Virus record (IMG/VR): IMGVR_UViG_3300046710_000150
Span: 1 to 64,000 of that record
Origin: a virus
Strand: one strand, 5' to 3'
DNA: 64,000 nucleotides
The notes under the pieces were generated by a model. That model saw nothing but the letters and a program-made list of their open reading frames with translations, was not told the DNA's origin and did not search any database. Below, in pieces: positions 5,961-50,996 of the stretch; position 1 is the stretch's first letter; the number at the start of each line of letters is the position of its first letter. Position numbers and translations under genes: made by a program.

Positions 5961-8900
5961 CAGCTCCGCCTCGGCTTCGAGGATCAGGGTGATCAGGCGC
6001 TCGATCTCCGCGTCGTTGCCGATGGGGATGGGGCGAGGGATCCCTGCCTCGATCTTGATGGAGAACTCACGGCTCAGGGCGGGCGGGTTGCCCAGCGGGT
6101 CGGTCGGAGCACCACCATCCTCGGGGAAGATGATGAAGGACGAGCCCCTGACGTAGGCCCCGATGGTGAACGCACCAAGACCCCCGCCCACGGGCGCGAT
6201 CCATGCGTCGATCCCGAACCATGGGGCCACCATGGCGTCGAGGGTGATAGCAGCAGGCTCCATCGCGATGTTCGCAGCGAGGTAGATCCTCTGACCGCGC
6301 TTCTCTCCGAGCACGAGGGCGTCCAGCGTGAACGATCCGCGCCGGTCCCCGGCCGCCACGATCTCTGCCTCGACCACGAAACTCGCAGCCTTGGTGGGCA
6401 AGTAGGACCATGCGTCGAGGTGGAAGGAGCCAGACCCACCCCGGGTGACGGCAGCGTCGATGTACAGGTAGGGCTGGATGAAGGCGTCGGCCGTGAAGTG
6501 GATCTGATAGAAGCAGGCGTCCAGCGTGAAGCCACGTGCGGCGACGTTCGCGAAGACGTAGAAGAACGCCCCGCCTGCACCCAGAATGCTGGCATCCAGC
6601 AGCCACGAGCCACGTACCTCGCCCTGAGGGGCGATTTCGGCATCGAGAGTGCAGGCTGACTGCTTCGTCAGCCCCACGATCTCCGCGTCGATGGTGATCG
6701 GGTCGCCCAGAGTGCCAACGATCCATGCGTCGATGGTCGGAGCGGGGTACGACAGGATGCGATCTATCTGCTGGCTGTAGGTCAGCAGGCCGCTTCCAGC
6801 CATAGACGGCTTATAGGCACCATCGGTGTAGGCGTAGACGTAGTAGGGCTCGAAGTAGTACGACGGCCAGAAGGTGATGATGGTCGTGGGCCCGCGTACC
6901 ACCGTGATCTGGCCGGGGCCCTGAGCGGAGTCTGCCCCCGGAGCTGGACGCGCCCACAGGTTCTCGTTGGCGGAGTCGATCCCGATGGCCGTCTGCGGGA
7001 TGCTGAGATCGCCCCAGATCGTGATCGTGACCGGCTGGTAAGCCGGGAACCAGATCGGGCCAGAGAGGACGTTATCACCTGCCGACCCATCTGGCAGCAC
7101 CATGTTCGCGCCGGGGAAATCGAGGAGCTGGCTGGCATTCTCGAGAACGCTGACAACCTCTCCCTCGCCCTCGTAGACCACGGTGTGGATGGACGAGATG
7201 AACGCTTCGATCAGGAAGTCCCCGCTACCAGTCCTGACGATGGCGGCGTCGAGGAACATGCTGGTGATCGGCTGCCCCGGCAGGATGATCGCCGCACTGA
7301 CCTTGAACGAGCCAGTGGGGTGGATTGCCTTGATGGCATCGAGGTAGAAATGCGGGTGCAGCCACAGCTCCCAGTACTGGTCCCAGTACGCGGAGGCGTC
7401 GTACTTCTCGGCGAAGATCGTGAACGAGCCGCCCCTCTTCCACGTGTTGGTCTTGTACGCGAAGATCGAGAAGAACGCCTGCTGGCGACCCTTGATCACG
7501 GCGTTGATCAGGAAGCCCGTGATCCCCGCGCTGATCGTGAAGCTGCCCTGCGGGCGGCGGACGATGGCGGAGTCCAGAAGGACCGACCCGAGGGTGACCC
7601 TCAGAAGGGTGGCGTCGAGCCGGAAGTAGCCCTCGATGAAGGCAGCCACGGTGAAGCTGCCGAGCTTCGCGTTGGACACGTAGGCGTCGACGTTGAATGT
7701 CCACGCACTCCGCCCAACGATGACGGCGTCGACCTTGAAGTGGGGTCGGATGCGAGCGTCGATGGTGAAGCTCGAGCTGATCCCCGAGATCTTCCACGCA
7801 TCGAGATGGATGCCACGGTCGTCGTGGCGGTAGTAGGTGATGACCTTGGAGGCATCGACCTCGAAATGCGGCTGGACCCACGACGAGATCGAGAAGAACC
7901 CGAAGACCGGGTGCGTCTTCCACGCCGCCACCGTGAACGCCAATGACCGCGTGCCAATGACAATGGCGTTGATCCTGACAACGCCGCGCACGAAGGCATC
8001 GAGTGTGAAGGACCCCGTGACCCTGCGGCTCAACCATGCGTCGAGGGTGAACTCGCATTTGATCCATGCGTCGATGGAGAAGTGGCGAGACGCGATCCGG
8101 GCGTCGAGGGTGAAGGTCGGCTGGATGAAGGCCCCGATGGTGAACGCTGCTGCCTGTCGACGGCGCAGCGAGGCCGCCACCGTGAAGGTGGAGCCGAAGG
8201 TCCAGACGAACCTTGCGTCGATGGTGAAACGAGGCTGGATGAAGGCCCCGATGGTGAACGGGAGGCCCGTGCTCCAGTCCTTGTACCAACCAGCACCCGT
8301 CAGGGCGGGCCGGTAGACATTGTCCTTGAAGGAGGCGACGTAGTAGACGCCGGGAACGGCGACCACGTCGTGCTCGCCCAGATCCGTGGAGACCGGGTAG
8401 CCAGTGATCGCCCCGGCAATGCTCAGGTCTCCGCCGTCACTCGGGGGCGAGTCGACAACAACGACAGCCTGCTCCCCGGCGCTGATCGGGAACGCGGGGG
8501 ACAGGGCGTTGGCCGTCAGCCCACCACGGGTCCTACTGGTGCCGGGGAAGGCGAGGGGTCGAAGCCCGGGACCAACCGTGGCGAGGATGACCGCGTTGAT
8601 CAGGATGAACGACCCGCCGCCACCCACCTGCGCGTTGACTGCGAACCCAGAGACGATGGTCGCGCCCTTGATCGCGTCGACCCTGAAGTGAGCCGGGACA
8701 GTCTCGGCGTCGAGGGTGAAAGAACCCGCGTAGGTGGTCCTGAAGACCGCCTTGATCGTGAACGATCCTGAGCGCGGCCCGAAGATGGCGGCCTTGGCCG
8801 TGAATGACCCGGTGCGGTGGGCCAGCACGACCGCGTCGGCATGGAACCCGAGGTCGATCCGAGCGTTGATCCAGAAGTAGGGCTGGACGAAGGCGTCGAC

Positions 8901-9575
8901 GTGGACCGGGTGAACGACGAGCTGGGTGAGGATCGCGCCGACGGGGATCGACCCTGTCTGGGTCCTCCAGAGGTCCGCGCTGATCGCGAACGCCTTCTGG
9001 TTCGTCAGCCGGATGACGGCCGCGACGGCGAAGGATCCTGTAGCGGGCTTCGCCCTGATCGCGTCAACGCTGAAGCGAAGCGGAGCGAACGCCGCGTCGA
9101 GGGTGAAGCCAGCACCCGTCCCGATGGCGGCCCAGATCGTGAAGCCTGCGCTCGGGCTCGCCTTGATGACGGCGTCGAAGAGGACTCGACCGTTGGTCCG
9201 CTCGTGCAGAACCTCGATGACCACCTGAGAGACGCGAGCGTAGGCACCAGTCGGCGCGACCAGCACCTCGACCGGAGACTGGCTAACACGGGCTCGAGTC
9301 TCGTTGTCGTAGATGGCGTCGAGGTGGAAAGACCCAGCCTGAGGACCCTTGATGACGGCCTTGAGGGTGAAGCTACCGGTCGGGTTCTTGCGGGCATTGA
9401 GAGTGAAGGAAGAAGAAGCGGTGGCCTTGACGACGGCGTTGATCGAGAAGGCTCGAACCAGAACCGCGTCGATCCTGAATGCCTTGTCCAGCCGGATCTC
9501 AGCGTCGAGGAAAACCCCCAGCCCCGACTCGAAGACCGACAGATCAAAGACGGTAGGGTCGAAAGACGCCGTCAT
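5352..9575 (-). CDS. giant tail protein: ~70 short beta-type repeats plus C-terminal Cys-peptidase-like domain
   Basis: 1407-aa ORF. Repeats of 12-16 aa with core (G)SF(T/A)(L/I/V)(D/N/K)A run through aa ~40-1150. ARVSQxxxEVL motifs near the N-terminus. C-terminal DIDDCWLVA...GLHQIGV...YVDNP. Confidence 0.85.
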   Translation of the reverse strand: MTASFDPTVFDLSVFESGLGVFLDAEIRLDKAFRIDAVLVRAFSINAVVKATASSSFTLNARKNPTGSFTLKAVIKGPQAGSFHLDAIYDNETRARVSQSPVEVLVAPTGAYARVSQVVIEVLHERTNGRVLFDAVIKASPSAGFTIWAAIGTGAGFTLDAAFAPLRFSVDAIRAKPATGSFAVAAVIRLTNQKAFAISADLWRTQTGSIPVGAILTQLVVHPVHVDAFVQPYFWINARIDLGFHADAVVLAHRTGSFTAKAAIFGPRSGSFTIKAVFRTTYAGSFTLDAETVPAHFRVDAIKGATIVSGFAVNAQVGGGGSFILINAVILATVGPGLRPLAFPGTSRTRGGLTANALSPAFPISAGEQAVVVVDSPPSDGGDLSIAGAITGYPVSTDLGEHDVVAVPGVYYVASFKDNVYRPALTGAGWYKDWSTGLPFTIGAFIQPRFTIDARFVWTFGSTFTVAASLRRRQAAAFTIGAFIQPTFTLDARIASRHFSIDAWIKCEFTLDAWLSRRVTGSFTLDAFVRGVVRINAIVIGTRSLAFTVAAWKTHPVFGFFSISSWVQPHFEVDASKVITYYRHDDRGIHLDAWKISGISSSFTIDARIRPHFKVDAVIVGRSAWTFNVDAYVSNAKLGSFTVAAFIEGYFRLDATLLRVTLGSVLLDSAIVRRPQGSFTISAGITGFLINAVIKGRQQAFFSIFAYKTNTWKRGGSFTIFAEKYDASAYWDQYWELWLHPHFYLDAIKAIHPTGSFKVSAAIILPGQPITSMFLDAAIVRTGSGDFLIEAFISSIHTVVYEGEGEVVSVLENASQLLDFPGANMVLPDGSAGDNVLSGPIWFPAYQPVTITIWGDLSIPQTAIGIDSANENLWARPAPGADSAQGPGQITVVRGPTTIITFWPSYYFEPYYVYAYTDGAYKPSMAGSGLLTYSQQIDRILSYPAPTIDAWIVGTLGDPITIDAEIVGLTKQSACTLDAEIAPQGEVRGSWLLDASILGAGGAFFYVFANVAARGFTLDACFYQIHFTADAFIQPYLYIDAAVTRGGSGSFHLDAWSYLPTKAASFVVEAEIVAAGDRRGSFTLDALVLGEKRGQRIYLAANIAMEPAAITLDAMVAPWFGIDAWIAPVGGGLGAFTIGAYVRGSSFIIFPEDGGAPTDPLGNPPALSREFSIKIEAGIPRPIPIGNDAEIERLITLILEAEAELDALYCAVENFTPQGYTAVKGPSPNPSGGGYNRGSSLPGAISQIGYPNAGDIDDCWLVATVWAAVASGQTYRPDATTYRRAAMNPDRPGPTGGTADQTFRGAKGCWPGANIRRYVSTDWNGFTSLLKAGWVASLAVNSGALPGYLQYGFYGLHQIGVAYQNGQYYVDNPLMSNGTSPVSIDEIALRTAARGFSGGVICATMFG

Positions 9576-9590
9576 CAGCGATCACCGGGC

Positions 9591-9617
9591 ACAACAAAAG
9601 AGCCCCTTCCGGGGCTC
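9591..9617 (-). terminator. intrinsic terminator (minus strand)
   Basis: Minus-strand read GAGCCCCggaaGGGGCTC followed by TTTTGTTGT: perfect 7-bp GC stem, 4-nt loop and a U-tract. Lies between the stop at 9674 and the start at 9575. Confidence 0.65.
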
Positions 9618-9630
9618 CTCGTCGTTCTCG

Positions 9631-9666
9631 CCATGGGATTGGTCTTCATTCCGACCATGGGATTGG
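9631..9666. repeat. two copies of 12-mer CCATGGGATTGG (9631-9642, 9655-9666)
   Basis: Exact direct repeat. The same 12-mer pair recurs at 31928-31968. Both pairs sit upstream of a hairpin and of a repeat-protein gene. Confidence 0.8.
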
Positions 9667-9673
9667 CCGCCGA

Positions 9674-11266
9674 TCAGACTGCGTTCGCGTCCAGATTGTG
9701 CCAGACGTGGTACTCGATGTAGGGGCGGCCCGGGGCCGAGGGATCCGTCTGGAAGATGCCCTTGTCGGGGTCGACCTCGATGAAGCCCTTGATCGTGCTG
9801 TCGGGGCTGTTCAACGCGGTCTGTCGGAGGCCCTTCACCACCACCGTCAGGCTGCCCCTGACGTAGGCGTAGGAGCACTGCCACTTCCCGCCAGACATCT
9901 GTGCGGGCCACTCCTTGACCAGCGTCATGGGCGAGGCCACCACGTAGGGGTAGTCGACCTTCGGGTCCTGCCGCGAGATAACGTTGAAGTTGGGCTGGAC
10001 CAGACCCCTCGTGGGAGGACGCTTCAGGGCGAGGAGCAGACCCCACGGATCCTGCGTGTCGTACGAGCACGTCACCTGATACTCGACCGTGGTCGGAGTC
10101 GGGAAGCTCATGGACATGGCCCGGATCGGGAGGTCTACCCCGTCCCTCGTCTGGAGCCCGAACACGGGGTCATACGTGGTGAAAGTGTGGACCCCCGAGA
10201 AGATGCTCACGATCTGGCCCGGGAAGAGGCCGTGCTTGTAGACCGTGAAGGAGGCCCGCATCGCTGGGGTGCCTTCCTGATTGAGGAGCTTGTTCGCCCG
10301 GGCGTTGACCATGCCCTGCATCCAGTCGGAGCCCATCACCTCGCTCCACTGAAAGCGCCCGAACAGGTTCACCGAAGGGTTGTTCACCTTGTGGACGAAC
10401 CTCAGGAACTCCTGCGTCGACGTCGGGGTGGGGTCGAGAGTCCCCGTGAAGACCAGCACGTCGTTCTTGAGCATCGAGATGTCGGTGGTCACCGAGAGGT
10501 TCTTGCAGGCGATGCTCCCGGCGTTGTCGCCTACCGACCACGGAGCCCGCTCGTAGTCCTGCTCTCGCCACACGATGTAGCCGTCGGGGTCGATGTACCA
10601 GATGGCCGATCCCGGCTGGCTGCGGATGATGTTGCTCGAGACGTCGGTGAAGAACGCCCGCAGCGAGGTCCCTGCCGAAGGGGGTGTCCACGTGTTCTGG
10701 GTGTCGCCCGTGTTGATCTCGCTGATGGGGACCATCTTGCAGTCGCTGGGCGCAAAGGGGGCTTGGCCGTACTTGATGGTGGGGCTGACCTTGTTGAGGT
10801 CGAAGTCCTTCATCATGGTCTGGATGTAGGTCTTGTCCATCGTGTGGATGGGGACCGAGACCACGTAGCCCGTGTTCTTGCCGTCGTCGAGCGTCACCTT
10901 CATGCGCTTGTACGTGCCCCCACCGTCGGGGTACTTCACGGGGTGGGCTCGGTTGTACAGGAACAGCTTGTCGAACAGGATGTTCAGGTCGACCCCGTGC
11001 AGGATCAAGCGGGGCTCTGGCTTGTCGGGGAAGACGAACCCCTGCTCCTTGATGAACAGGTAGCCCCACCACATCCTTCGACCGTTGATGTAGAGCGCGA
11101 GGAGATCGCCCTCCGTGATCTCGGGATGGAGCCCCCTCACGGTGATCTGGCAGGACCCCGGCTGAGCAGAGGCCGCCACCTGAAAGTTGGTCTGGGTGAA
11201 GATCACGTCGGCCGAGATGTCGGACGTCCCGGCGGTGATCGTGACGACCGCCTCCTCGACGTCCAT
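9674..11266 (-). CDS. minor tail protein (first gene after tape measure; distal-tail/hub position)
   Basis: 530-aa ORF. Its start codon overlaps the TMP stop at 11266. Synteny places it immediately downstream of the TMP. Confidence 0.8.
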   Translation of the reverse strand: MDVEEAVVTITAGTSDISADVIFTQTNFQVAASAQPGSCQITVRGLHPEITEGDLLALYINGRRMWWGYLFIKEQGFVFPDKPEPRLILHGVDLNILFDKLFLYNRAHPVKYPDGGGTYKRMKVTLDDGKNTGYVVSVPIHTMDKTYIQTMMKDFDLNKVSPTIKYGQAPFAPSDCKMVPISEINTGDTQNTWTPPSAGTSLRAFFTDVSSNIIRSQPGSAIWYIDPDGYIVWREQDYERAPWSVGDNAGSIACKNLSVTTDISMLKNDVLVFTGTLDPTPTSTQEFLRFVHKVNNPSVNLFGRFQWSEVMGSDWMQGMVNARANKLLNQEGTPAMRASFTVYKHGLFPGQIVSIFSGVHTFTTYDPVFGLQTRDGVDLPIRAMSMSFPTPTTVEYQVTCSYDTQDPWGLLLALKRPPTRGLVQPNFNVISRQDPKVDYPYVVASPMTLVKEWPAQMSGGKWQCSYAYVRGSLTVVVKGLRQTALNSPDSTIKGFIEVDPDKGIFQTDPSAPGRPYIEYHVWHNLDANAV

Positions 11267-14200
11267 CAGACGGCCGCACCGCGCAGGCCGAACATCTGAC
11301 CCTTGCGGGCGAGGCTCTTCTCGACTTCGATAGCCACGCAGCGAGCCAGCTCCGCGATGTCCTGCTCATTGCGGACCACGGGCCCGTTGATGTTGACGGT
11401 GACCGGACCAGAGGCCCCGCCGGTCGCCGCCAGAGAGCCAGCACGGGGGTTGCGGAGGACGGCTACGGTCTCGGTTCCAGCTTCGCCGAAGGTGATGTCG
11501 GTGGGCCGAGAGGCGGTAGCCAGATATCCCGTGGCCTTGCCTCCGTCGTTCCGACCGCCGTTCCCGGCGACGATGGGGGAGTACCCGAGGATCTTGCGGA
11601 GGGCGTCGGTGCCGTCCTTGAGGGTGCCCGCGAACTGGCCGACACCCTGCGTGGCGGCCGAGAGGACGTCGCCCCAGTTGCCGGTGGCGGTCCCGAGGAT
11701 GGCGTCCATGCCCGCCACCTTGGTCGCCATGATCTGGCCTTCCTTGGCGATGGCCTCCTGCGCCGCGATGGTGTAGCCCTCGGCGTTGCGCGCCAACTGC
11801 ATGCTGGTGATGGCCTTCTGGGCGTCCGTCGCGGAGCGGTTGGCGTTCTCGATCCAGATCTGCTTCGAGAGGTTGAACTGCTGCGTGGAGATGTTCAACT
11901 GCTCCTGCTGGATCCCGGCCTTGGCGATGGCTTCCTTCTGGGCGAAGAACCGCTCCTCGCCTGTCTGACCGGGAGCTTGGAACTGAGCCTGCGCCAGAGC
12001 GGTGGTGATGCCGCGCTGCTGGAGCTGCAGGCCGAGCTGGGTGCCCTGAATGTCGAGGCGGTGCATCGCCCCTTCCATCTTGCCCAGAGCCGTGCCACCG
12101 GCCTTGCCCAGCATCCCGAGGGCGTCCCCGAGGGTCCGCGTGGCGATACGGATCTGGTTGTCCCAGTTGAACTGACTCGACTCCTGATTGAGCTTGCCCA
12201 TCTTCGTGGTCAGGTCAGCGATCCTCGCCGCCGACATCTGGGACTGGATAGCGAGCATGGCGAAGTTGGGCAGCGAGGCCGGATTGAACTGCCCCACCTG
12301 ATTGAGCGCCTGCACCATGCCCTGACCGGCGATGGCACCCAACCTGACGTTCGACCCAGCCGAGGAGGCCAGAGCCTGCTGGGCCATGCCTGCCGCAGGA
12401 CCGGTCATTCCGGCCGCAGCCGCGCTCGGCTTCCCGGTCGTGGCACCGGGGAAGAACCCGAGGCCCGGAGCGACGAGGGGCTGCTGCAGCAGGTTCTTGG
12501 TCGTGGCGTAGGGGATCTCGAGGGCCATGGTGAGCTGCTGCTGGGCCACCCGGGCCTGCTTCTGGGCGTTGAGCTGGCGCAGGTTCATCTGGGCCCAGAC
12601 ACCGGCCTCGATGATGGTCTTCCCGAAGCTGACCTGAGAGATGGCGTCCGTGTATTCCTTGGCGCTCTTGGCGAGTTCCCCGTTGATCTTGACGATGACG
12701 TGCGACTTCTGGGCGAGGTCGATCCCGCTCTGGTCGTTCGCCTGATTGGCGATGAACGACGCCTTTGCCACCTCGTCGAGGCTGTTGGTGTACTCGTACG
12801 TGACCTTCGTGGTCTTGCCGAGGTTGTCCTGTGCCCGCGACCCGGCGGCATTCAGGTCGTCGAGGTACTTGGTGAGGTTGCCCATCGCCTCAGGCGTGGG
12901 GGTCTTGAAGGCCCCGGGGTTCGGGGGTGGGGGCGAGATCCAATCCATGAGGTCGGCGACGATGGGAGCGCGAGGGATCAGGCTCTTCCCGCCGTTCTGG
13001 GAGTCCACGAATGTCCTGAACGAGTCGCTCGTCAGGTACTTGGTGGCGTTGCTGATGGCCTCGCTTGGACCCCCGCCTCCACCCGGCTGGCTGGCGGTGT
13101 TCACGTCACCTGCGACGATCTCCTGAAAGCCCTTGCCTCCGCCCATCTGCTCTGCGAACAGGCTGGACCCAAGGAAGCCGCCGTACCCACCGAACAGCCC
13201 CTGAGGGGCCTGCTGGTTCTGAGCACCCATGGTGGCGCGGAACAGGTTGGACGTCTCCTGCTGCGCCCTCGCCCCAGCCTTGGCATTGACCGACGCAGAC
13301 AGAGCGTCAGAGACGAACGCGAGCATGTCCTTCGACAGGCCAGCCGTGACCCCAGCCTGCGCCAGCGTGGCCTGTGTGTTGCCGTGGGCCTCGTACGTGG
13401 CCTGTCCGAGGGCCGTCGTGGTGGCGGTGAACGCTGACTTCCAGCCAGTGAACTGGTCGACCACCTTGCCCAACGCCGGGATCGCGGCGTCGGTGATGAC
13501 GGTCGAGGCGAGCTGCATTGCCATGCCGTAAGCAGTGGTGGCCCCGATGATCACGCCGAGGTTCTTGAGGACGCCGCCCGTGGTGGGCATGGCCTTGGCG
13601 GTGGCTTCCTTCAGGACATCCAGCCGCTGGGCCTCGACCCTCTTCGCCTCGCGGATCGGTTCGACGACGCCGCGCAGGGCCTTGGAGTAGTCAGCCTGAT
13701 GGATCCGACCCTCGTCGAGATCCTTCCGCAGGGCGACCTGAGCGGCACGTCCCTCGCCGACAGTCCGGTTGGTCCGGTTGAAGGCCGAGGTGTAGGCGTT
13801 GGCGGCTTCGACGCGCTCGCGCTCCGCCTTCGTCATCTGCTGGACGCCGCCGAAGAGGAACGAGCCGATGGCCGCGACAGCACCTGCAGGGGTGCGAGAC
13901 GGCATCACCTTGCCAGCCCCGGCCCGCATGACCGCCAGCTCCTCGCCCATGTTCTCGCGGGAGGGCATGTACTGGGCGCGGCCGGAACGAGCCTTCTTCA
14001 CCGTGGCGGCGATGATCTTCTCGCGCTCGACGCGCTCGATGGCCTCGACCTCGGGCAGTGCCGAGTACGCAGCGGCTCGCCTCCGGGGCGGAGGAGGGGT
14101 AGCTTCGAGGAAGGGGATGGGTCCGGGCTCTCCCCACACGTCAGCCCGCGCCATAGCCTCCTGAGCTGCTGCCCGCATTCGCTCCGTGCGCGTGCCACGA

Positions 14201-17200
14201 GCTGCATGCGGGACCTGATCCATCAGGCGGTTGGGGACGATGATCCCGTCCTCGGGGGGCGCGAACAGGCTGTTCGGCTTCTGGCCGATCACCTGCATGC
14301 CGCCCTGCGCCTTCGGGATCTGGTCCATGACCTTCTTGGGGATCAGGGGCGTCAGGGGCTTGGGGACGAACAGCTCCCTGCCAATCTCGCCGACGATGTA
14401 CAGGCCCTTGCCGCCGGGAGACAGTTCCTTCGCGGGAAGGTTGTTCTCGAGCGCACGTCGCACCCATGGCGACATGACGGGACCACCGCCCTCGCGACCA
14501 GTGAACTTCGCGAAGATCTCGGCTGCCCGCATGCGCTGCGGATCCACCCGCTCGAGCGAGCGGTTGGCCGAGGCAATCCGGGTGAGCCCGGGGCTCTCGA
14601 TCAGTCCGCCGATGGCGCGAACTGCCGCCTCCGCGTCGGTGCCGGTGGCACGGAGCCGGAGCTGGTCACCCTGCCGCGCACCCAGCGCCAGCAGGTGGTG
14701 CATGTACTTCGCGTCGACCACGCCGCGCTGCGGCATGCCACGGGTCAGGTTCTCGACGCTGATGAAGGCGTCGAAATCGGCCGCCATCCTCGCGAGGTGG
14801 GCCGAGGGACGCATGTGGAGGCCGAGCTGGTCCGCGACCGTGAAGAGGTGGCTGACCGGCCCTCCGCCCTCGCGGTAGATCTTCGGGGGGAGCTTCGACG
14901 TGCGGGCGCGCTTCAACCACTCGGGCTCGAAGGGCTCGACCGGCTTCGGCATTTCGACCTTCGGAGGCTCGGGCAGGCCGAGGATGCGGCGCTGCAGTGG
15001 GCCCAGAACGGGGCCCCCCTCGGCGTGCCCTCCCTTGGTCCAGTTGGTGCCGTAGACGCCGCGCATGTAGTTCCCGGCCAAGGCCCGAGTCCAACGTCGG
15101 GGGTCATTGAGACTCCCCATGGTCTCGTTCCAGCGCCGGTCGCCGACCAGCGTGCCACCCGTGAAGGGAAGAGGCGCTCCGACGAAGTCCTCGTTCAGGC
15201 GGGGAGGTCCGACACGCTCGATACGCTTGGGATTGAAGACACCAGCGCGGTACTGGCGCAGGCGCTCGCGACGACGCTCCCAGTCGCGGTTCGGCACGTA
15301 CCCGCCGCGAGCCTTGTGCTGGGCCGCCTGCTGCTGCCACGCCATGATCGCCATGAAGGGATCGTTGGCCCAGTCGGCAGCGGTCTGGAACATGGACGAG
15401 ACGAACCCGGGCTTGGCGATCTGGTTGAGGGGCGGAGTCATGCCCCCCAGAGCAGGGCCACCAGCGGCTCGATGGAAGGGGATCTCGAGCCCCGGATGAC
15501 GCGGGATCGAGATGCCGCGCTGGGTCCTGAGCCAGTCCGTGCCGAGGCCAGCGCCCTTGTGGGCGGCGTTGACGTTCGTGTCGAGGCCAGACCAGAGGAT
15601 GGCCTGAAACTCGCTCAGGTTGTGGAGGTCCCACCGCTTCGCGTACTCGGGGTAGAGGTCCTCCATCGCCCCGATGCCGAGCTTGCGGATCATGTCGCTC
15701 CCGGCGGGAGCCTTCCAGAAGGTCTTGCTGTTCGGGCCGGTGTGGCGACGAGCAGCGGTGATGATCTGGGACATGCGGGAGTCGTAGGTGATGGCGTTCG
15801 GATCGAGGCCAGTGATGTTCTGGAACATCGCGCCGCGCTTGGGCCCAGTCGGAGAGTCCTCGCGGCCCATCAGGAACGCCCATGCGTCCTCGATGGGGCC
15901 AAGGCCCCGACCGGCGGAGAAGGACGTCTCGCCGAACCCGGGCACGTTGGAGCTGCCGGAGGTTTGGGGGACTCCGGTCTCGAGCAGATGGCGGACGATG
16001 GCACGGTTGGAGCGCCACTCCTGACCCGACGAGGCGGCAGCGAACGCGCCAAGACCCGACAGGGCATCCATCCCGAGCGACTGCCAGCTCGTCTTCCCGC
16101 CGATGATCGGGTCCATGAGGTCACCCACGGCCTGCGCGTGAGCGATGGTCCACCAGTCCCGGGCCTCGTTGACCACCTCGGGCTTGATCGTCTCGGCGTG
16201 GGCACGGATGTTCGCATGGAGATCGCGGGCGTTCTCAGGCAGCCGCATCAGGCCACGGAGGGGGTTCTTGGGAGTGGAGGATGGCACCACCCAGCCGCCG
16301 TCAGCTCGGAGGCCGATGCTGCTGGGGGCGAGGAGAGCGCCGCGAGGGGCGTCGACCGGCGAGCCCGAGAGGCCCACCAGCTTGTAGTGGCGCTTGCTCT
16401 GGGGACCGCTGCTGATCGCGTAGGCGGGCACGGTCTCGAGACCCAGTCGACGAGCCACGGCGAGGCGATGATTGCCATCGTCGACCATGGCCGCGTGGTG
16501 CGACGGGTCGTAACGCAGGGCGATGGGCTTCTGGATGCCACGCGCCGCGATGTCGCCGGTCAGCTCACCGAGATCGGTGGCACCCTGTCCGGTGCGTGGG
16601 TACGTCTCCCGGTCCTCGCGGAGCAGGGGCAGCAGAGTCGACAGGCGGACGTTCTCGACCATTCCCCCCGACTCGCGCTTGCGGCCAGCCATGATGAGCT
16701 GTTGGATCCGCTCGGCGTTGGCGCGCAGCTTGTGGGAGCTGGTCGGGATCTCGTCGAACCGCTTCAGGTCGAAGAACGCGAGCTGCTCCTTGGCGCGAGC
16801 GACCATGTCCGCTTCGCGCTTGCGGCCGAGGACGGCGGCGGGGTCGATGTGGATCTGGCCCTCGTGGAGCCACGTCCCGACGTAGGGCGGGAAGCTGCCA
16901 GCCGCGAGCTGAGACTTCTTCTGGGCGTTGAACTGCTTCAGGAAGTCGCGGAAGTTGCTGGGGTCCTCGACGAGGTGCGACGTTCCGGTCGCGATGCCGA
17001 CGGCGTAGCCCTTGGGCGGCTGTGGCCCACCGGAGAGCGGGAAGGTGCCACCCTCGTTCCCCATCGTGGCCCGGTAGGCCATGGCCCCGAACCCGGCCTT
17101 CTTGATGTTCCGCAGGATCCGCCACGACTCGATCTCGCCCGACGGAGCGTGGAGCTGCACGGCGTAGCCCTTGCCGACAGGAGCCACACCCACGTACCCA

Positions 17201-19053
17201 CCCGGGGCAGAGTGGTCCTGATAGTGGTTGATCGTGTCCTGAATGGCGTGGTAGAGCCCCTCAGGACGTGGGGCGTAGTGAGGTCCGCCGCCGGGGAGGC
17301 GGCTGATCTCGACCGCGCCACCACGAGCACGGAAGCGTACGCCGGGGCGGTCGGGAATGAACTGGTTCTCACCGAATGCTGGGGCAGGCTGGGGGACATG
17401 GGCACGGGCAGGTGAGGGGTTCCACTCCGAGGTGGCAGTCCACGGACCATTCTCCCCGTAGGAGACACGGCGCATCTGCTCCTGTGGATCGTTGCGGCGC
17501 TGCGCCCGAGTTCGAGCCCTCGGCGGAAGGGGCTGGCCGAACAGGGGGGCGGGCTGGGGGACGTGAGCAGGCTGCGACGGGTACAGGGCAGCGGTGGAGG
17601 CCGAGGAGCGGATCGGGGGGACATTACCCGGCCCGTTCCACGGCGTGGCGTCTGGGGCAACCGAGGGGGGGTTGAGGGCTCGACGAGCCGCCGCCATGCG
17701 CTCGAACTCCAACGTACTCCGGTCGTCAGCCTCTTCGCGGGCAGCCGTGGAGAGCACATGTGCGTCAACGGGACGATCCCCGAAGATCTTCCCGAACGGC
17801 CGATCCGGCTGAGCCCAGAACGCCTTACCGCGTGTGAGTTGGACCTTCGAGGGGGCGACGGGACGCCCAGTGAACCGCTCCGTCTTGACGTAGGCTGCAG
17901 TCGCCAGACCCTTCCTGCGGTGCTCGACACCCGTGATCGAGTAGTCAGGGTGGAAGCTCCCTGCGGGAGTGGGGACGCCCCACTGCTCGGGGTCCGAGCG
18001 GTAACTGAAGGGGAAGGTCGCCGCGACCTTGTCGCCCTTCTTGACTACGGCAATGAGCCCGGCCACGTAGTCCTTGGACAGGATGGGGGGCTTCTTGACG
18101 GCCTTGAACAACCGGTTGCTTGGTTCGTTCAGGCCACCACCGAAGTTGCGGATATCGAAGTCGTTGCTCTGGGGGCTGTAGAACTCGATGTGGTAGCCCC
18201 GGGGGAGTCCACCCTTGTGGGCTGGACCGCCGTGAGCGAGATGGGGCAGGCGCTGGGGAGCCTGCTGATCGTGGCGGTCAATAGCCATGTCGAGATGGAG
18301 CAGAGCGGCGTCACGCACGCGCCTGAGGGCGCGACTCGGCGAGAAGCTCTGCAGGTTCCGCTCGTGCTGGCGCTGCTGCTGGTACTCGAGAGCGGCCAGC
18401 TCTGCCTCGCGCTTGCGGAACTGGGCCTGCTTCCGGTAGAACTCCTCGGCGTTGGCGTGGATCGTCCCCGAGGCACGCGGGGTGAAGACCTCTGCACGCC
18501 TCTCCCCCACTAGAACGGCCTGTCCCTGCTGTACAGGGCCACCGTGGGCCCGAGTGGGCATGTTGTTGCGAACGGCCGTCTCAACGGCTCTGGCGGCCCC
18601 TGAGCGCGTTCCAATGGCCGGGGTCGAAACGGCAGAGACGACCTTCTTGGCCTCGTTGGTGGCATTGCTAACGGCCCCCTGAAGAGCCGAACCGATGGAC
18701 TTGGAGAGATCCGCAGATCCCCCCGTACTGCTCGTGGTCAACGTGATCGGGATGGAGCCGATGCCCTTGATGATGGCGGCACGGAGAGTGGCGAGACTCT
18801 CCGCGTTCACCGTCAAGGGGACATTGACAGCGGCCATCTGCGAGGTCGACGGACCAGTGCCGGTGACGGCCCTGCCACCACCGGCCACCTGAGCCCCACC
18901 CGCAGCCCGCATCTGGGACGCGCCGGAGGCAGCTTTCTGGGCCGAGGTGGACATGGCGTTATTGGCCGCCGTGACCGCCTCGGCCTTTCCGATGTAACCA
19001 GCAGCGTCCAGCGTGAGCCTGACGCCAATGGTCTCGACTTCCGTGTTCGACAT
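11266..19053 (-). CDS. tape measure protein, 2595 aa, with embedded globular domains
   Basis: Directly downstream of the G/GT chaperones. The N-terminal 160 aa and C-terminal ~950 aa are Ala/Gly/Gln-rich and helical, as in TMPs. GGxV...VGE..E..P motifs at aa 171-192, 1547-1564 and 2504-2533. Confidence 0.9.
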   Translation of the reverse strand: MSNTEVETIGVRLTLDAAGYIGKAEAVTAANNAMSTSAQKAASGASQMRAAGGAQVAGGGRAVTGTGPSTSQMAAVNVPLTVNAESLATLRAAIIKGIGSIPITLTTSSTGGSADLSKSIGSALQGAVSNATNEAKKVVSAVSTPAIGTRSGAARAVETAVRNNMPTRAHGGPVQQGQAVLVGERRAEVFTPRASGTIHANAEEFYRKQAQFRKREAELAALEYQQQRQHERNLQSFSPSRALRRVRDAALLHLDMAIDRHDQQAPQRLPHLAHGGPAHKGGLPRGYHIEFYSPQSNDFDIRNFGGGLNEPSNRLFKAVKKPPILSKDYVAGLIAVVKKGDKVAATFPFSYRSDPEQWGVPTPAGSFHPDYSITGVEHRRKGLATAAYVKTERFTGRPVAPSKVQLTRGKAFWAQPDRPFGKIFGDRPVDAHVLSTAAREEADDRSTLEFERMAAARRALNPPSVAPDATPWNGPGNVPPIRSSASTAALYPSQPAHVPQPAPLFGQPLPPRARTRAQRRNDPQEQMRRVSYGENGPWTATSEWNPSPARAHVPQPAPAFGENQFIPDRPGVRFRARGGAVEISRLPGGGPHYAPRPEGLYHAIQDTINHYQDHSAPGGYVGVAPVGKGYAVQLHAPSGEIESWRILRNIKKAGFGAMAYRATMGNEGGTFPLSGGPQPPKGYAVGIATGTSHLVEDPSNFRDFLKQFNAQKKSQLAAGSFPPYVGTWLHEGQIHIDPAAVLGRKREADMVARAKEQLAFFDLKRFDEIPTSSHKLRANAERIQQLIMAGRKRESGGMVENVRLSTLLPLLREDRETYPRTGQGATDLGELTGDIAARGIQKPIALRYDPSHHAAMVDDGNHRLAVARRLGLETVPAYAISSGPQSKRHYKLVGLSGSPVDAPRGALLAPSSIGLRADGGWVVPSSTPKNPLRGLMRLPENARDLHANIRAHAETIKPEVVNEARDWWTIAHAQAVGDLMDPIIGGKTSWQSLGMDALSGLGAFAAASSGQEWRSNRAIVRHLLETGVPQTSGSSNVPGFGETSFSAGRGLGPIEDAWAFLMGREDSPTGPKRGAMFQNITGLDPNAITYDSRMSQIITAARRHTGPNSKTFWKAPAGSDMIRKLGIGAMEDLYPEYAKRWDLHNLSEFQAILWSGLDTNVNAAHKGAGLGTDWLRTQRGISIPRHPGLEIPFHRAAGGPALGGMTPPLNQIAKPGFVSSMFQTAADWANDPFMAIMAWQQQAAQHKARGGYVPNRDWERRRERLRQYRAGVFNPKRIERVGPPRLNEDFVGAPLPFTGGTLVGDRRWNETMGSLNDPRRWTRALAGNYMRGVYGTNWTKGGHAEGGPVLGPLQRRILGLPEPPKVEMPKPVEPFEPEWLKRARTSKLPPKIYREGGGPVSHLFTVADQLGLHMRPSAHLARMAADFDAFISVENLTRGMPQRGVVDAKYMHHLLALGARQGDQLRLRATGTDAEAAVRAIGGLIESPGLTRIASANRSLERVDPQRMRAAEIFAKFTGREGGGPVMSPWVRRALENNLPAKELSPGGKGLYIVGEIGRELFVPKPLTPLIPKKVMDQIPKAQGGMQVIGQKPNSLFAPPEDGIIVPNRLMDQVPHAARGTRTERMRAAAQEAMARADVWGEPGPIPFLEATPPPPRRRAAAYSALPEVEAIERVEREKIIAATVKKARSGRAQYMPSRENMGEELAVMRAGAGKVMPSRTPAGAVAAIGSFLFGGVQQMTKAERERVEAANAYTSAFNRTNRTVGEGRAAQVALRKDLDEGRIHQADYSKALRGVVEPIREAKRVEAQRLDVLKEATAKAMPTTGGVLKNLGVIIGATTAYGMAMQLASTVITDAAIPALGKVVDQFTGWKSAFTATTTALGQATYEAHGNTQATLAQAGVTAGLSKDMLAFVSDALSASVNAKAGARAQQETSNLFRATMGAQNQQAPQGLFGGYGGFLGSSLFAEQMGGGKGFQEIVAGDVNTASQPGGGGGPSEAISNATKYLTSDSFRTFVDSQNGGKSLIPRAPIVADLMDWISPPPPNPGAFKTPTPEAMGNLTKYLDDLNAAGSRAQDNLGKTTKVTYEYTNSLDEVAKASFIANQANDQSGIDLAQKSHVIVKINGELAKSAKEYTDAISQVSFGKTIIEAGVWAQMNLRQLNAQKQARVAQQQLTMALEIPYATTKNLLQQPLVAPGLGFFPGATTGKPSAAAAGMTGPAAGMAQQALASSAGSNVRLGAIAGQGMVQALNQVGQFNPASLPNFAMLAIQSQMSAARIADLTTKMGKLNQESSQFNWDNQIRIATRTLGDALGMLGKAGGTALGKMEGAMHRLDIQGTQLGLQLQQRGITTALAQAQFQAPGQTGEERFFAQKEAIAKAGIQQEQLNISTQQFNLSKQIWIENANRSATDAQKAITSMQLARNAEGYTIAAQEAIAKEGQIMATKVAGMDAILGTATGNWGDVLSAATQGVGQFAGTLKDGTDALRKILGYSPIVAGNGGRNDGGKATGYLATASRPTDITFGEAGTETVAVLRNPRAGSLAATGGASGPVTVNINGPVVRNEQDIAELARCVAIEVEKSLARKGQMFGLRGAAV
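14593..14862 (-). other. HPr-like (PTS phosphocarrier fold) domain inside TMP, aa ~1398-1487
   Basis: HLFTVADQLGLHMRPSAHLARMAADFDAFISVENLTRGMPQRGVVDAKYMHHLLALGARQGDQLRLRATGTDAEAAVRAIGGLIES aligns along its whole length with HPr (G-[IL]-H-x-R-P-[AS] active-site loop, DA.V, [NA]-K-S-type loop, G.DE..A). Confidence 0.75.
16399..16656 (-). other. ParB/Srx-like N-terminal domain inside TMP, aa ~800-885
   Basis: IQKPIALRYDPSHHAAMVDDGNHRLAVARRLGLETVPAY matches the ParB-like nuclease domain core (hydrophobic-DG-x-HR...A...G...VP). Confidence 0.65.
17779..18201 (-). other. GNAT-like acetyltransferase fold segment inside TMP, aa ~285-425
   Basis: ITGVEHRRKGLATAAYVKTERFTG...TRGKAFWAQ resembles GNAT motif A (R-x-x-G-x-[GA]) and the following helix/strand. 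Weaker than the HPr and ParB calls. Confidence 0.4.
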
Positions 19054-19070: not shown

Positions 19071-19651
19071 CTACACCGACTCCCCCTTGAGAGTCTCAGC
19101 GTTGAAATCTATGACGTCGTCGGCCGTGGGCAATCGTTCGCCTTCGGTGCCGATGCTGTTTGCCTTCACCCAGTCCTCGCGCAAGGCGAGGTAGTAGTGA
19201 AAAGGGAGCTGCGCTACCTCGTGAGGCCACTTCCCGTATCGCAGGGCGATGCGGAAGATGAGGTCACGAGTGGTCAGGCGTTTCCCTTGGGGGTCTCCTC
19301 ATCCACGTCGGGCTCGGCGCTCATGGGCTTCTTGGACTCCGGCTCGTCACCGTAGTGCATGCGGTTGACGGTCGTGTTGAGCTTCAAGGCCGCCCGCATC
19401 GGGAAGCTCGCCAGAGTCTCGGGCGTGATCTTGGGGTCGAAGGAGCACTTCAGGACCATCATCTTGAGGAGCACGGCGTTGTCGATGGTCTCGACATCCT
19501 CTCCCGTGATCGGGTTCGTGACCTTCTTGGTGGCCTTGGTCACCAGATCGTCGTAGTCCCCGATGGAGAGTTCCCGCAGGTGGTACGTGATGCCCCGGAT
19601 GTTGACCTCCTCCTCGAGGAAGTCAGGCGTCAGCGGCTGGTTCTTTGGCAT
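19071..19651 (-). CDS. tail assembly chaperone GT fusion (via -1 frameshift)
   Basis: After a slip at GGGAAAC the -1 frame reads GKRLTTRDLIFRIALRYGKWPHEVAQLPFHYYLALREDWVKANSIGTEGERLPTADDVIDFNAETLKGESV and stops at TAG 19071-19073. That frame has no start codon of its own. Confidence 0.75.
19274..19651 (-). CDS. tail assembly chaperone G
   Basis: ATG at 19651 with AGGAG upstream. 125 aa, acidic C-terminus, located just upstream of the TMP. Confidence 0.8.
   Translation of the reverse strand: MPKNQPLTPDFLEEEVNIRGITYHLRELSIGDYDDLVTKATKKVTNPITGEDVETIDNAVLLKMMVLKCSFDPKITPETLASFPMRAALKLNTTVNRMHYGDEPESKKPMSAEPDVDEETPKGNA
19280..19286 (-). other. -1 programmed frameshift slippery heptamer G_GGA_AAC
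   Basis: Minus-strand read ...CCC AAG GGA AAC GCC TGA. A canonical X_XXY_YYZ site four nt before the G stop codon. Confidence 0.75.
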
Positions 19652-20033
19652 TGTGGAAACTCCTGAGGTATGTGATGGCCTTGGCGAGGATCGCCTCCGA
19701 GTCATGGGCATGGCCCAGTAGGAGGTTGCAAGACGGGCAAAGCAAGCCCCGTGGCTCATCTGTGCGGTGATCGTGGTCGATGTGCGTCCCCTTGCGTGAC
19801 GGGTCCAGCACATTCCCACAGATGGCGCATCTGCCAGCCTGACCAACGAGTTGGTCCCTGTACCAATCAGCGGTGACGCCGTGCTGTCGCAGGCGGTGAG
19901 CAGCAACACGCGCCTTCTTCTGGACCAGAGTCATGCCGTGGTACTTGGCTCTGGCCTTGGCTTGAAGCTCTTCGAGGTGGTTCGCGTACCACCGGGCGTA
20001 GTTCCCGTGCTGGGCTTCAGCCGTTCTTGTCAT
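19623..20033 (-). CDS. HNH endonuclease (endonuclease VII type)
   Basis: GRCAICGNVLDPSRKGTHIDHDHRTDEPRGLLCPSCNLLLGHAHDSEAILAKAITYL carries the C-x2-C...DHDH...G.LC..CN signature. Confidence 0.85.
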   Translation of the reverse strand: MTRTAEAQHGNYARWYANHLEELQAKARAKYHGMTLVQKKARVAAHRLRQHGVTADWYRDQLVGQAGRCAICGNVLDPSRKGTHIDHDHRTDEPRGLLCPSCNLLLGHAHDSEAILAKAITYLRSFHNAKEPAADA

Positions 20034-20444: not shown

Positions 20445-20870
20445 TTAGAGCGATCCGGCCGTGAAGACGGTCCACGCTCCGGCAGCCTTGAAGTTGCCGG
20501 TGGTCTTGATCGCGTCCGAGATGGACGCGGTGATCGCGGCGTCGATCAGGCTCGGGCCGTAGCCGATGAGCAGCTCGGAACCGGCGCGGTCATCCGCGTA
20601 CAGATAGACGTCGATGCTGTCGCTCGTCGCGGCGTTGACCTGATAGTCACCGCTCACGTCGAGGAGACCGGCAAACGTGCCGGAGACGTCCCGAAGACCC
20701 ACGAGGTAGGTCTTGTTCGTGTCGCCGAACACCGTCGCGTCGACATAGTCGCGGTTCAGGTTCAGCGTCCACTCGGTCTTGGTCGTGACCTTCTTGCCGG
20801 TGCCCTTGGGGCCCCAGAGATAGATAGCACCGTTTTTGCCGTGAAGCTTGGTGCCTGCTCCTACTGCCAT
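20445..20870 (-). CDS. major tail (tube) protein, paralog 2
   Basis: 141 aa. KLHGKNGAIYL...TEWTLNLNRDYVDATVFGD.NKTY..GLRDVSGTFAGLLDVSGD...TGNFKAAGAWT is collinear with the 20891..21268 product. Confidence 0.75.
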   Translation of the reverse strand: MAVGAGTKLHGKNGAIYLWGPKGTGKKVTTKTEWTLNLNRDYVDATVFGDTNKTYLVGLRDVSGTFAGLLDVSGDYQVNAATSDSIDVYLYADDRAGSELLIGYGPSLIDAAITASISDAIKTTGNFKAAGAWTVFTAGSL

Positions 20871-20890: not shown

Positions 20891-21268
20891 CTAACCGATG
20901 GTCCACGCCCCGGCAGCCTTGAAGTTGCCCGAGCAACGAACCGCGTCGGAGACGCTGGCCGTCACGGATGCGTCCACGTAAGCTGGGCCTGAGGCGACGG
21001 CGGGTTCTCCCTCCCTCGCATACACGGCGATGGTCACTGCTGACCCCGTGTTGCTCTGGACGAGGGCGTCCCCGTCGACGTCCAACAGTCCCGCGAAGGT
21101 CCCGCTGATGTCCATAAGCCCCGCCGCGTACACCTTGTTCCTGTCACGGAACGTGGAGACGTCGGCGTAGTCACGAGCCATCGAGAGAGACCACTCGGTC
21201 TTGTTGGTGACCTTGACCCCGTTGATGTAGATCGCAGCGTTCTTGCCATGCAGTTTCCGCCCAGCCAT
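20891..21268 (-). CDS. major tail (tube) protein, paralog 1
   Basis: ATG at 21268 shares one nt with the upstream stop. MAGRKLHGKNAAIYINGVKVTNKTEWSLSMARDYADVSTFRDRNKVYAAGLMDISGTFAGLLDVDGD...SGNFKAAGAWTIG. Confidence 0.75.
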   Translation of the reverse strand: MAGRKLHGKNAAIYINGVKVTNKTEWSLSMARDYADVSTFRDRNKVYAAGLMDISGTFAGLLDVDGDALVQSNTGSAVTIAVYAREGEPAVASGPAYVDASVTASVSDAVRCSGNFKAAGAWTIG

Positions 21269-21699
21269 CAGGGAGTCCCCAGACGCTGGTCGGTCCAGAT
21301 CGAGTACGTGCCCCCGACCTGATAGATGCGCTTCCCCTCGGAGTCGACGTCTGGCCCCGTTGGCAGATCGGCGACCCGGCGGCAAAGCAGGCTGGTCTGC
21401 CCATCCACACTCAGCACAGCCTCGTTGAGTGCTTCGCAGATGAGCGCGTCAAGGTTATTGGCCTCGACGGGGTTCACCGCATAGGTGGAGATGTCCATCA
21501 GCGCCTTGATCAGCACCCCGGTCCAGTCGTATTCGTACGACGAGGCCACGATCTGGTAGACGCTGAACGGGTACTTCACCTTGCGGGGAGCGATCCCTTC
21601 ATGAATACCGCCTGCGATGGCGGACATGTAGGACGGCGAAGCACGAAGCTTCTGCACGACCGCTCTCTTGACAGGGGCGACGGTGGACGTTGCCGCCAT
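21268..21699 (-). CDS. tail terminator-like protein
   Basis: 143 aa. Position between the gp10-like gene and the tube genes. The N-terminal pattern VKRAVVQKLRASPS...GGIHEGIAP...YPFSVYQ resembles DUF3168-type tail-completion proteins. Confidence 0.5.
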   Translation of the reverse strand: MAATSTVAPVKRAVVQKLRASPSYMSAIAGGIHEGIAPRKVKYPFSVYQIVASSYEYDWTGVLIKALMDISTYAVNPVEANNLDALICEALNEAVLSVDGQTSLLCRRVADLPTGPDVDSEGKRIYQVGGTYSIWTDQRLGTP

Positions 21700-35309: not shown

Positions 35310-35717
35310 CTATCCTCCGAGCATCCTCGAGGCGACGATGTCCACATCGTCTCCGCCGCAGACCACCCCGTTCGGCAAGAGCCAGAGCCGGGTCATGTCT
35401 CCGTTACGGTGCTTCTTCCCGATGCCGACAGCGACGATCTCGCTGCCCGCCATCAGGTTCCCCACGTGGTGTTTCGTGAAGTATGGCTGATCGCCCTGCT
35501 CCACGATCATGCAGAAGAGGGGGCGGCTCGTTTCCTTGTGGTACAGCACCCACGTCGAGGGTGCCCGCATGAGAGAGAGGTTCGCGGCGATCCATCCCGG
35601 CTGGTCGAGGTCGATCCCGGTGTTGCCGTTGGAGCGGTCGTCTGGCTCGATGACGAGGAAGAAGGGGAAGTCCCCGTGCCACTGGCTGGCGACGGCCTCT
35701 TCGGTGACTACTTCCAT
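35310..35717 (-). CDS. hypothetical protein
   Basis: 135-aa ORF with high GC3. Overlaps the upstream gene by 10 nt. Confidence 0.6.
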   Translation of the reverse strand: MEVVTEEAVASQWHGDFPFFLVIEPDDRSNGNTGIDLDQPGWIAANLSLMRAPSTWVLYHKETSRPLFCMIVEQGDQPYFTKHHVGNLMAGSEIVAVGIGKKHRNGDMTRLWLLPNGVVCGGDDVDIVASRMLGG

Positions 35718-50499: not shown

Positions 50500-50996
50500 T
50501 TCCGGTTCTCCTCCCAGTGGTAGGCGAGCACCCAGTGACTGCAGCCCTGATAGCACTCGGCTGGATCCTCGTGGCGCTCGTAGCAGAGATTGGTCCTCAC
50601 TTTGCCCTTGTAGACGAGAGTGCCGTCGTCTGGGATTGAATACGAGAGACAGCCCTCCACGATGCCGCGAGCCTGCAGGTACGGGATGGTGGCAGGAACC
50701 CACCAGTCCCCGTCCTCGTTGAGGTACGGGCCCAGATCATTCGGGAAGCCCAGACCATTCGGGAAGCCCAGACCATCGGTGGCCGTGACTCCTACCGCTT
50801 CGAGCGCGGGTCGATCCATCATTCGAGCTTGATCCTCACATCCACTTCCCCGTCGGTGAGGTTGAAACCGACGTACTTGACCTTCCCTGACGTCCAGCCC
50901 AAGCTGGGCAGCCATCGCCTCGAGTTCGGCAACCTCACCCTCGAGTGTCGCCACTTGGGGAGCGAGGGCCTCGTACCGCTTCTTCCACTTGCTCAC
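50493..50996 (-). CDS. hypothetical protein (N-terminal 30 aa duplicated in 51118..51414)
   Basis: GTG at 50996 with AGGAGG nine nt upstream. Contains the tandem GLGFPN GLGFPN. Confidence 0.65.
   Translation of the reverse strand: MSKWKKRYEALAPQVATLEGEVAELEAMAAQLGLDVREGQVRRFQPHRRGSGCEDQARMMDRPALEAVGVTATDGLGFPNGLGFPNDLGPYLNEDGDWWVPATIPYLQARGIVEGCLSYSIPDDGTLVYKGKVRTNLCYERHEDPAECYQGCSHWVLAYHWEENRKW
50738..50773. repeat. 18-bp tandem duplication x2 (cattcgggaagcccagac)
   Basis: Exact adjacent copies at 50738-55 and 50756-73, encoding GLGFPNGLGFPN. Confidence 0.85.

Follow-up and report, generated by a model that had tools for sequence, protein, structure and literature searches.

An HPr domain within a giant tail protein

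The stretch of DNA analysed here, referred to below as the window, comprises positions 1 to 64,000 of the virus record IMGVR_UViG_3300046710_000150 and is a fragment of a phage genome whose tail module is read on the minus strand. A giant open reading frame (ORF) of 2595 amino acids (aa) at 11266..19053 (minus strand) lies in the tape-measure position, as judged from its single open frame, the gene order and the existence of giant homologues. It is the longest tail gene and has the genes for the major tail proteins and the chaperone-like ORF on one side and the distal tail genes on the other, an order that is identical in a related contig (L001). The assignment of the giant protein as a tape measure is positional. 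Within the same uninterrupted frame (11266-19053), window 14593-14862 (minus strand) is translated as GPVSHLFTVADQLGLHMRPSAHLARMAADFDAFISVENLTRGMPQRGVVDAKYMHHLLALGARQGDQLRLRATGTDAEAAVRAIGGLIES, which corresponds to aa 1398-1487; the plus-strand reading of this segment gives no meaningful peptide. The original prediction, made from the letters of the DNA, had described the segment as a domain resembling HPr, the phosphocarrier of the phosphotransferase system (PTS), embedded in the tape measure protein, and had proposed that it either docks onto PTS components at DNA entry or tampers with carbon signalling at injection.

The HPr domain proper is delimited at 14596..14847 (minus strand; aa 1403-1486) by Pfam, by Foldseek and by substitution rates. 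The Pfam PTS-HPr profile (PF00381) matched aa 1403-1486 with E=2.3e-18 and 66.4 bits, far over the cut-off of 23, and the match covered profile positions 4-80 of 81, in agreement with the predicted collinearity with bacterial HPr over ~85 aa. When the PDB was searched by phmmer, 27 HPr, NPr or Crh sequences were matched, with 3le1 at the top (1.7e-7). Matches of the HPr segment in NCBIfam were exclusively to HPr-type families, the best being the HPr domains of larger PTS proteins of the FruB and DhaM type, in which such fusions are known.

A structure of the HPr cassette was modelled with AlphaFold2 from five cassette sequences, with moderate confidence (predicted local distance difference test, pLDDT, 66). 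The model shows the element order b-a-b-b-a-b-a of an open-faced beta-sandwich, and the histidine is placed directly before helix 1, as in HPr. Comparison of the model with the PDB by Foldseek returned HPr, Crh or NPr as the top 39 matches without exception, with template modelling (TM) scores of ~0.8 when normalised to the target and a root-mean-square deviation of ~2.2 A. The superposition on HPr that had been suggested as a check on the prediction was thus in its favour.

When the segment was aligned to the HPr proteins of E. coli and B. subtilis, the sequence G-L-H-M-R-P (14806..14823, minus strand, by direct translation; His1413 at 14815-14817 and Arg1415 at 14809-14811) falls on His15, Arg17 and Pro18, as anticipated for the phospho-histidine loop G-L-H-x-R-P. 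The H, R and P of the loop are invariant in every phage HPr cassette as well as in the two bacterial proteins. The same alignment recovers the expected G-x-D-E/A..A helix, which reads T-G-T-D-A-E-A-A in the window copy, and confirms a Tyr at the position of the regulatory Ser46. In its fold, its G-[LI]-H-x-R-P loop and its ~85-residue collinearity the domain is like bacterial HPr, NPr and FPr (PF00381). It differs from bacterial HPr in the Tyr at Ser46, in a 6-residue insertion ahead of helix 2, and in its setting inside a phage tail protein of 2595 aa, where neither the protein nor the rest of the window holds an enzyme I (EI), EIIA or other PTS domain. The closest cellular HPr proteins, from Chloroflexota, Kiritimatiellota and Planctomycetota, are 41-48% identical to it, and a donor lineage is not evident. 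The profile matches and the modelled fold indicate that the segment is a bona fide HPr domain with its phospho-histidine loop intact.

Conserved frame, junctions and exchangeable cassettes

Relatives of the giant protein were collected from a large protein database (18 proteins of 2100-3300 aa), by exhaustive profile search (P0019 and P0030) and from IMG/VR (seven viral contigs). Blocks of the window protein were mapped onto all relatives, and the counts given here are over 21 family proteins. A conserved N-terminal frame (aa 1-270; 18244..19053, minus strand), kept in 17-18 family members, holds the first junction and, after it, V-G-E-R-R-A-E-V-F-T-P. A conserved C-terminal frame (aa 1519-2595; 11269..14499, minus strand), kept in all members, contains a second block of this type, V-G-E-I-G-R-E-L-F-V-P, a hydrophobic segment and a Q/A-rich region, and ends with G-E-A-G-x-E-x-V-A-V-L-R-N-P-R ... 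R-K-G-Q-M-F-G-L-R-G. Between them lies a variable cargo region (aa 271-1518; 14500..18243, minus strand), which holds 9 of the gene's 10 cassette-boundary motifs and consists of blocks found in some relatives only. The relationship with P0002 is a mosaic: overall identity with the window protein is 55%, and blocks that are 96-100% identical alternate with blocks at 20-35%. The part of the window that encodes the cargo (14001-18000) has a GC content of 0.68, as compared with 0.62-0.66 elsewhere in the window. In P0001, P0003 and P0012 an extra module of ~250 aa lies within the C-terminal ~400 aa and is bordered by two copies of the motif V-G-E-A-G-x-E-x-[IV]-A-[IV]-L-x-N-P-R, indicating that cassette insertion extends beyond the central region.

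Each block in the giant protein and its relatives opens with the short motif [RK]-x-x-G-G-[P/x]-[VA]. There are ten cassette-boundary sites in window 14476-18552 (minus strand), examples being 18532-18552, 16657-16677 and 14854-14874. A motif scan placed one junction, R-E-G-G-G-P-V, at the opening of the HPr cassette (aa 1394-1400; 14854..14874, minus strand); a second R-E-G-G-G-P-V (aa 1520-1526; 14476..14496, minus strand) closes the cassette and opens the conserved M10 block. Twelve motif copies were observed in the window protein against 1.7 by shuffling (~7-fold; highest shuffle, 7). Their frequency is ~40-fold higher than in the other window proteins, which have 2 copies in 11,842 aa. 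The motif is enriched in nearly all relatives (P0015 is marginal), mostly within the N-terminal ~1700 aa. At the DNA level the copies are only 49% identical on average, which shows that the constraint acts on the peptide and rules out that the junctions are recombination hot spots. The motif could be a protease site, comparable to the G-G sites of polyproteins, or a structural hinge. Clustering of the inter-junction segments by single linkage gave one single cluster and was uninformative. A likeness noted by eye between the junction and V-G-E..E-F-V-P motifs and the A-T-G-G-F-T-G, A-T-G-G-Y-V-G and G-E-F-V-F motifs of lambda gpH was dropped, as a hidden Markov model of the motifs scored gpH no better than 2000 shuffles.

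HPr cassettes are present in 7 of the 21 family proteins (the window protein, P0001, P0002, P0003, P0004, P0019 and P0030; P0002 has two) and also in open frames of the contigs L002-L008, among which L004 has two. Every HPr copy (12 proteins or loci) begins 3-6 residues past R-x-x-G-G-P-[VI], while the position of the cassette differs among proteins, from aa 288 to aa 1411. Three cassette types can be distinguished, with a mutual identity of 35-43%, and G-L-H-[MI]-R-P is kept in all of them. The type-B HPr cassette of P0002 (aa 844-951) takes precisely the slot that a ParB-like cassette occupies in the window protein. Two HPr types (~36-41% identical) are found together in one giant protein in two lineages, represented by L004 (IMGVR_UViG_3300037011_000103, 6455-13435) and by P0002 / L001 (10001-17998), which hints at specialisation for different partners.

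Could the in-frame HPr segment have arisen from a chimeric assembly, or from a host gene fragment fused by error? The GC content of the cargo, slightly higher than that of the rest of the window, would fit such an origin. However, the same in-frame architecture, with HPr right after the junction motif, occurs in independent contigs from ENA, NCBI, JGI and IMG/VR, the protein is conserved despite synonymous divergence, and even the nearest cellular HPr is a distant one at the identities given above. The recurrence in independent contigs, together with the synonymous divergence, effectively refutes an artefact.

Between the window HPr and the L001 copy, non-synonymous divergence (dN) was 0 and synonymous divergence (dS) was 0.207 over 88 codons. 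The dN/dS ratio was 0.06-0.08 for close pairs of type-B HPr and 0.28-0.41 for more distant HPr pairs. The HPr cassette is under strong purifying selection. This bears on the idea that the cassettes are passive, serving as small, fast-folding bulk or length spacers, or as folded plugs in the tail lumen, with no PTS activity. Cassette number and content vary freely among the relatives and many cassettes have no recognisable function, as would be expected of filler. Filler need not keep catalytic residues, however, and His15, Arg17 and Pro18 are invariant over three types that share only 35-43% of their residues. The near-zero dN/dS and the occurrence of two HPr types in one protein, which suggests that they are not redundant, also speak against a passive role, and we consider it improbable.

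The remaining 14 of the 21 related giant proteins have no HPr cassette. From its distribution and sequence the cassette appears to be accessory, dispensable, replaceable and sometimes duplicated, with its active-site residues intact. This pattern is relevant to the first of the two roles proposed originally, in which HPr would be an entry adaptor through which the tape measure attaches to a PTS permease or to EI at the membrane, so that the DNA channel is formed or positioned. Lambda gpH/ManYZ and HK97/PtsG link the siphovirus tape measure to the host PTS at DNA entry, and the passages of that source which cite Cumby et al. 2015 state that entry of siphovirus DNA needs PTS permeases and that specificity maps to the tape measure (PMC6832061). 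For lambda and HK97 the entry factor is the membrane permease, and neither phage has a PTS domain of its own, unlike the window phage. The conservation of the HPr surface loop would be compatible with docking. On the other hand, the cassette is missing from two-thirds of the homologous giant proteins, and unrelated cassettes take its place, so that it does not belong to the core of the entry machine. The partners of HPr, namely EI, EIIA and regulators, are cytoplasmic, and docking from outside the membrane would be topologically awkward. In addition, HPr lies in the cargo region, outside the C-terminal frame with its hydrophobic segment, the part that, to judge from lambda and T5, would be expected at the tail tip. 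A docking role becomes less likely for a cassette that relatives can lack or replace, and we regard it as rather unlikely overall.

Parallels outside the family were also sought. A word-indexed protein search with the 110-aa HPr domain alone gave no match. The phage collection has nine records with HPr-like matches, but these offer no true parallel; the record that was checked, L012 (CAKLQH020000014.1, 'Acinetobacter phage MD-2021a'), is bacterial chromosomal DNA with pcnB, folK, panBC, yhbJ (rapZ-like), ptsO and thrS. Other giant HPr-bearing proteins recovered by the exhaustive search (P0023, P0027, P0028, P0029, P0031 and P0096) are unrelated metabolic multidomain proteins.

The giant protein carries several unrelated domains of effector type, comprising HPr, ParB/Srx, DUF7178-like and, as a weak assignment, GNAT-like domains, along with further unassigned cassettes such as that at aa 1246-1345. 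The ParB/Srx N-domain-like cassette (aa 796-918; 16300..16668, minus strand) was recognised with a profile built from eight copies, which matched ParB (2.2e-6), Noc (5e-5) and Spo0J (1e-3) in the PDB. Its D-G-N-H-R is invariant and fits the conserved G-x-x-R motif. As a single sequence it matched Pfam ParB_N only weakly (E=0.004; 17.6 bits, below the cut-off of 26.3). The adjoining DUF7178-like cassette (aa 915-1192; 15478..16311, minus strand) aligned to the DUF7178 region of P0002 with E=4e-6 and to phrog_3842 with E=5e-4. For aa 275-480 (17614..18231, minus strand), an AlphaFold2 model (pLDDT 71) gave Foldseek matches of which essentially all of the top ~50 were GNAT-type acetyltransferases or acetyl-CoA-binding proteins. 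These matches are weak (E 0.007-0.1; TM 0.3-0.4). The segment contains E-H-R-R-K-G-L-A, and no match was found at the sequence level in Pfam or the PDB. The sole match of aa 573-795 was to an unannotated PHROG, and sequence searches of the PDB with the remaining cargo gave nothing significant. A short cassette at 15265-15399 (minus strand; aa 1219-1263), which reads S-S-M-F-Q-T-A-A-D-W-A-N-D-P-F-M-A-I-M-A-W and is kept in nine family members, resembles residues 271-315 of the portal 9khx_X (F-Q-S-A-A-D-G-Q-S-D-P-F-M-A-M-I-G-W) with an E-value of only 0.41.

Proposed cargo delivery and comparison with known systems

Siphovirus tape measures leave the tail ahead of the DNA. Cargo carried by such a protein would for this reason enter the cell first. 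In our judgement the evidence is about evenly poised for HPr being an accessory effector, brought into the cell by the tape-measure-position protein of an uncultured high-GC siphovirus and acting on the host PTS. At infection the tape measure would be expelled via the tail, and its cargo cassettes may reach the cytoplasm just before the DNA, perhaps freed by cleavage at the G-G motifs, a speculative step. The HPr cassette, which keeps His15, Arg17 and Pro18, could then engage EI, EIIA domains or HPr-binding regulators. Acting as a phosphoryl sink or decoy, it might reset the uptake of sugars or the carbon signals of the cell soon after infection begins. That the domain is an accessory effector and not a core part of the entry machinery is suggested by its being dispensable, replaceable and duplicated, by its intact catalytic residues and by its place beside domains with cytoplasmic substrates. 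Of the two original proposals, we infer that the second, interference with the PTS or with carbon signalling at the time of injection, agrees better with the evidence than docking for DNA entry.

A bolder version can be put forward tentatively, and we think it possible but doubtful. The tape measure would be a programmable delivery polyprotein, in which a conserved helical and membrane frame carries exchangeable, cytoplasm-targeted effectors that are separated by R-x-x-G-G|P-V and released by cleavage, with two specialised HPr types hijacking the PTS phosphorelay within seconds of infection. The effectors would be threaded along the channel of the tail before the DNA passes. Once inside, the HPr cassettes might drain EI~P, or mimic phosphorylated or unphosphorylated HPr towards EIIA or transcription regulators.

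Several points weigh against HPr being a delivered effector. The description of the carrier as a tape measure stands as far as the gene position of the giant ORF is concerned, but no named tape-measure family was matched. Searches for tape-measure homology were negative in Pfam, PHROGs (whole protein and segments) and NCBIfam, with a PDB profile of the C-terminus and with hhalign against lambda gpH. A profile of the conserved C3 block found unnamed fragments only, and no named tape measure, in the large protein database. Megablast and tblastn with the gene or its C-terminal 894 aa gave no match in 50,697 phage records. No peptidase or MuF family was detected in the giant protein in Pfam, PHROGs or NCBIfam, and the absent peptidase counts among these points. 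That the host has a PTS is an assumption; the genome matches are two phage-sized contigs from metagenome-assembled genomes, labelled Thermotogae and Lysinibacter, and gave no host assignment. No other PTS genes (ptsI, crr, EII) were found in the giant protein or in the window's 59 further ORFs. The HPr segment scored 45.8 bits against the NCBIfam HPr subfamily TIGR01003, slightly under the cut-off of 47.9. The Tyr at the Ser46 position is a further point; among the relatives this position is Gln in P0002a and Ser in P0003, P0004 and P0030. Ser46 is the site of HPr kinase in Firmicute-type HPr and Crh and is not universal within the HPr family. The high block similarity to P0002 could partly reflect recent block exchange, besides constraint, and the GNAT assignment of aa 275-480 is weak.

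The domain might act instead in the cell that produces it. Late in infection, host EI~P would phosphorylate HPr and thereby tie tail assembly or tape-measure processing to the energy state. The active site is intact and the protein would be made in the cytoplasm, where EI is available. The literature searched gave no precedent for such a mechanism, however, and a swappable cassette with ParB- and GNAT-type co-cargo fits delivered effectors better. We therefore consider action in the producing cell very improbable.

An effector delivered by a tape measure would have partial precedents in three known systems. In mycobacteriophage TM4 the tape measure contains an embedded peptidoglycan-hydrolase motif; virions can assemble without this motif, which exerts its effect on the host during infection (PMC1796659). 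As in the window protein, a small functional domain is inserted in a tape measure. The target of TM4-type motifs is the cell wall, which lies outside the cytoplasm, whereas the HPr, ParB/Srx and GNAT-like domains of the window protein would have cytoplasmic partners; and in place of a single motif the window protein has an array of ~8-10 cassettes with a common junction motif. To our knowledge, the embedded tape-measure domains described to date act on the cell wall.

Polyvalent proteins combine unrelated effector-type domains, typically including ParB-like and GNAT domains, in giant polypeptides encoded among late or virion genes, for which entry into the cell along with the DNA has been proposed (Iyer et al. 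2017; PMC5512222). The window protein is like them in having multiple effector-type domains. Phage polyvalent proteins are associated with the head or portal, through MuF packaging, and often have a zincin peptidase, whereas the carrier here is a protein in the tape-measure position in which no peptidase was found. The terms tape measure protein and HPr each occur 0 times in that paper (PMC5512222).

The effectors of the Sle1 type, from actinobacterial contractile injection systems, combine a tape-measure-like helical scaffold in a tail-like tube with an exchangeable functional domain (PMC13277306). They are a precedent for a tape-measure-related scaffold whose functional domain differs among lineages, and the window protein parallels them in its exchangeable domains. 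The Sle1-type proteins are effectors of a cellular nanomachine with one C-terminal domain, whereas the window protein is a phage protein with an internal multi-cassette array. HPr is not reported for Sle1-type effectors (PMC13277306).

In the literature searched we found no description of HPr in a tape measure, of a phage-encoded HPr or of a tape measure as a polyvalent protein, and no example of an injected HPr mimic that attacks the PTS. The window protein is related in kind both to tape measures that have domains embedded in them and to polyvalent effector proteins. The identity of the domain and the modular architecture are solid, and the mechanism is inferred. If the proposal is true, siphovirus tape measures could deliver effectors that fold on arrival to the cytoplasm before any phage gene expression, and with an HPr mimic among them the phage would be striking directly at the PTS, the relay that is central to carbon sensing in bacteria. 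With its short junction motif and its cassette logic, the protein also suggests itself as a natural scaffold on which the delivery of proteins by phage tails could be engineered.

Tail module and neighbouring genes

The minus-strand gene order starts with the portal gene (PF04860), glycosyltransferase genes, protease and capsid genes, an adaptor gene and a tail-completion gene. Next are the two paralogous genes for major tail proteins, then a 115-aa ORF, an Endonuclease VII gene and the chaperone-like ORF of ~125 aa, after which comes the giant ORF. This is followed by a 530-aa gene, for which a weak YQBQ-like match was obtained, by one of 1407 aa and by one with a BppU_N match.

The two major tail protein genes lie at 20891-21385 and 20445-20870 (minus strand). 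The latter matched the PHROG major tail protein with E=8.5e-9, and K-L-H-G-K-N-[GA]-A-I-Y and N-F-K-A-A-G-A-W-T are common to both. The small ORF directly upstream of the giant ORF (19274..19650, minus strand) has its likely start at M-P-K-N-Q and encodes ~125 aa. It was labelled chaperone-like for its position and its size, which are like those of the 125-aa gene ahead of the L001 giant ORF; no family match was found for it in NCBIfam. An Endonuclease VII/HNH gene (19623-20033, minus strand), placed after the major tail protein genes and before the chaperone-like one, interrupts the region upstream of the giant ORF, where siphoviruses would have a chaperone pair with a programmed frameshift. 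The arrangement is repeated in L001, and a second Endonuclease_7 gene is present elsewhere in the window. These Endonuclease VII-type genes are probably homing endonucleases.

No isolate has a portal more than 24% identical to that of the window phage, which shows that the phage is distant from isolates. Amid the portal-to-capsid genes lie glycosyltransferase genes and a gene for an S-adenosylmethionine-dependent methyltransferase (26666-27925 and 35708-36571, both minus strand, and neighbours). Glycosylation of the virion, which is reported in some actinophages, is suggested by the glycosyltransferase genes in this position. The window also encodes a full-length RtcB RNA ligase at 49330-50703 (minus strand; PF01139, E=1e-104), which could repair tRNA cut by host anticodon nucleases.

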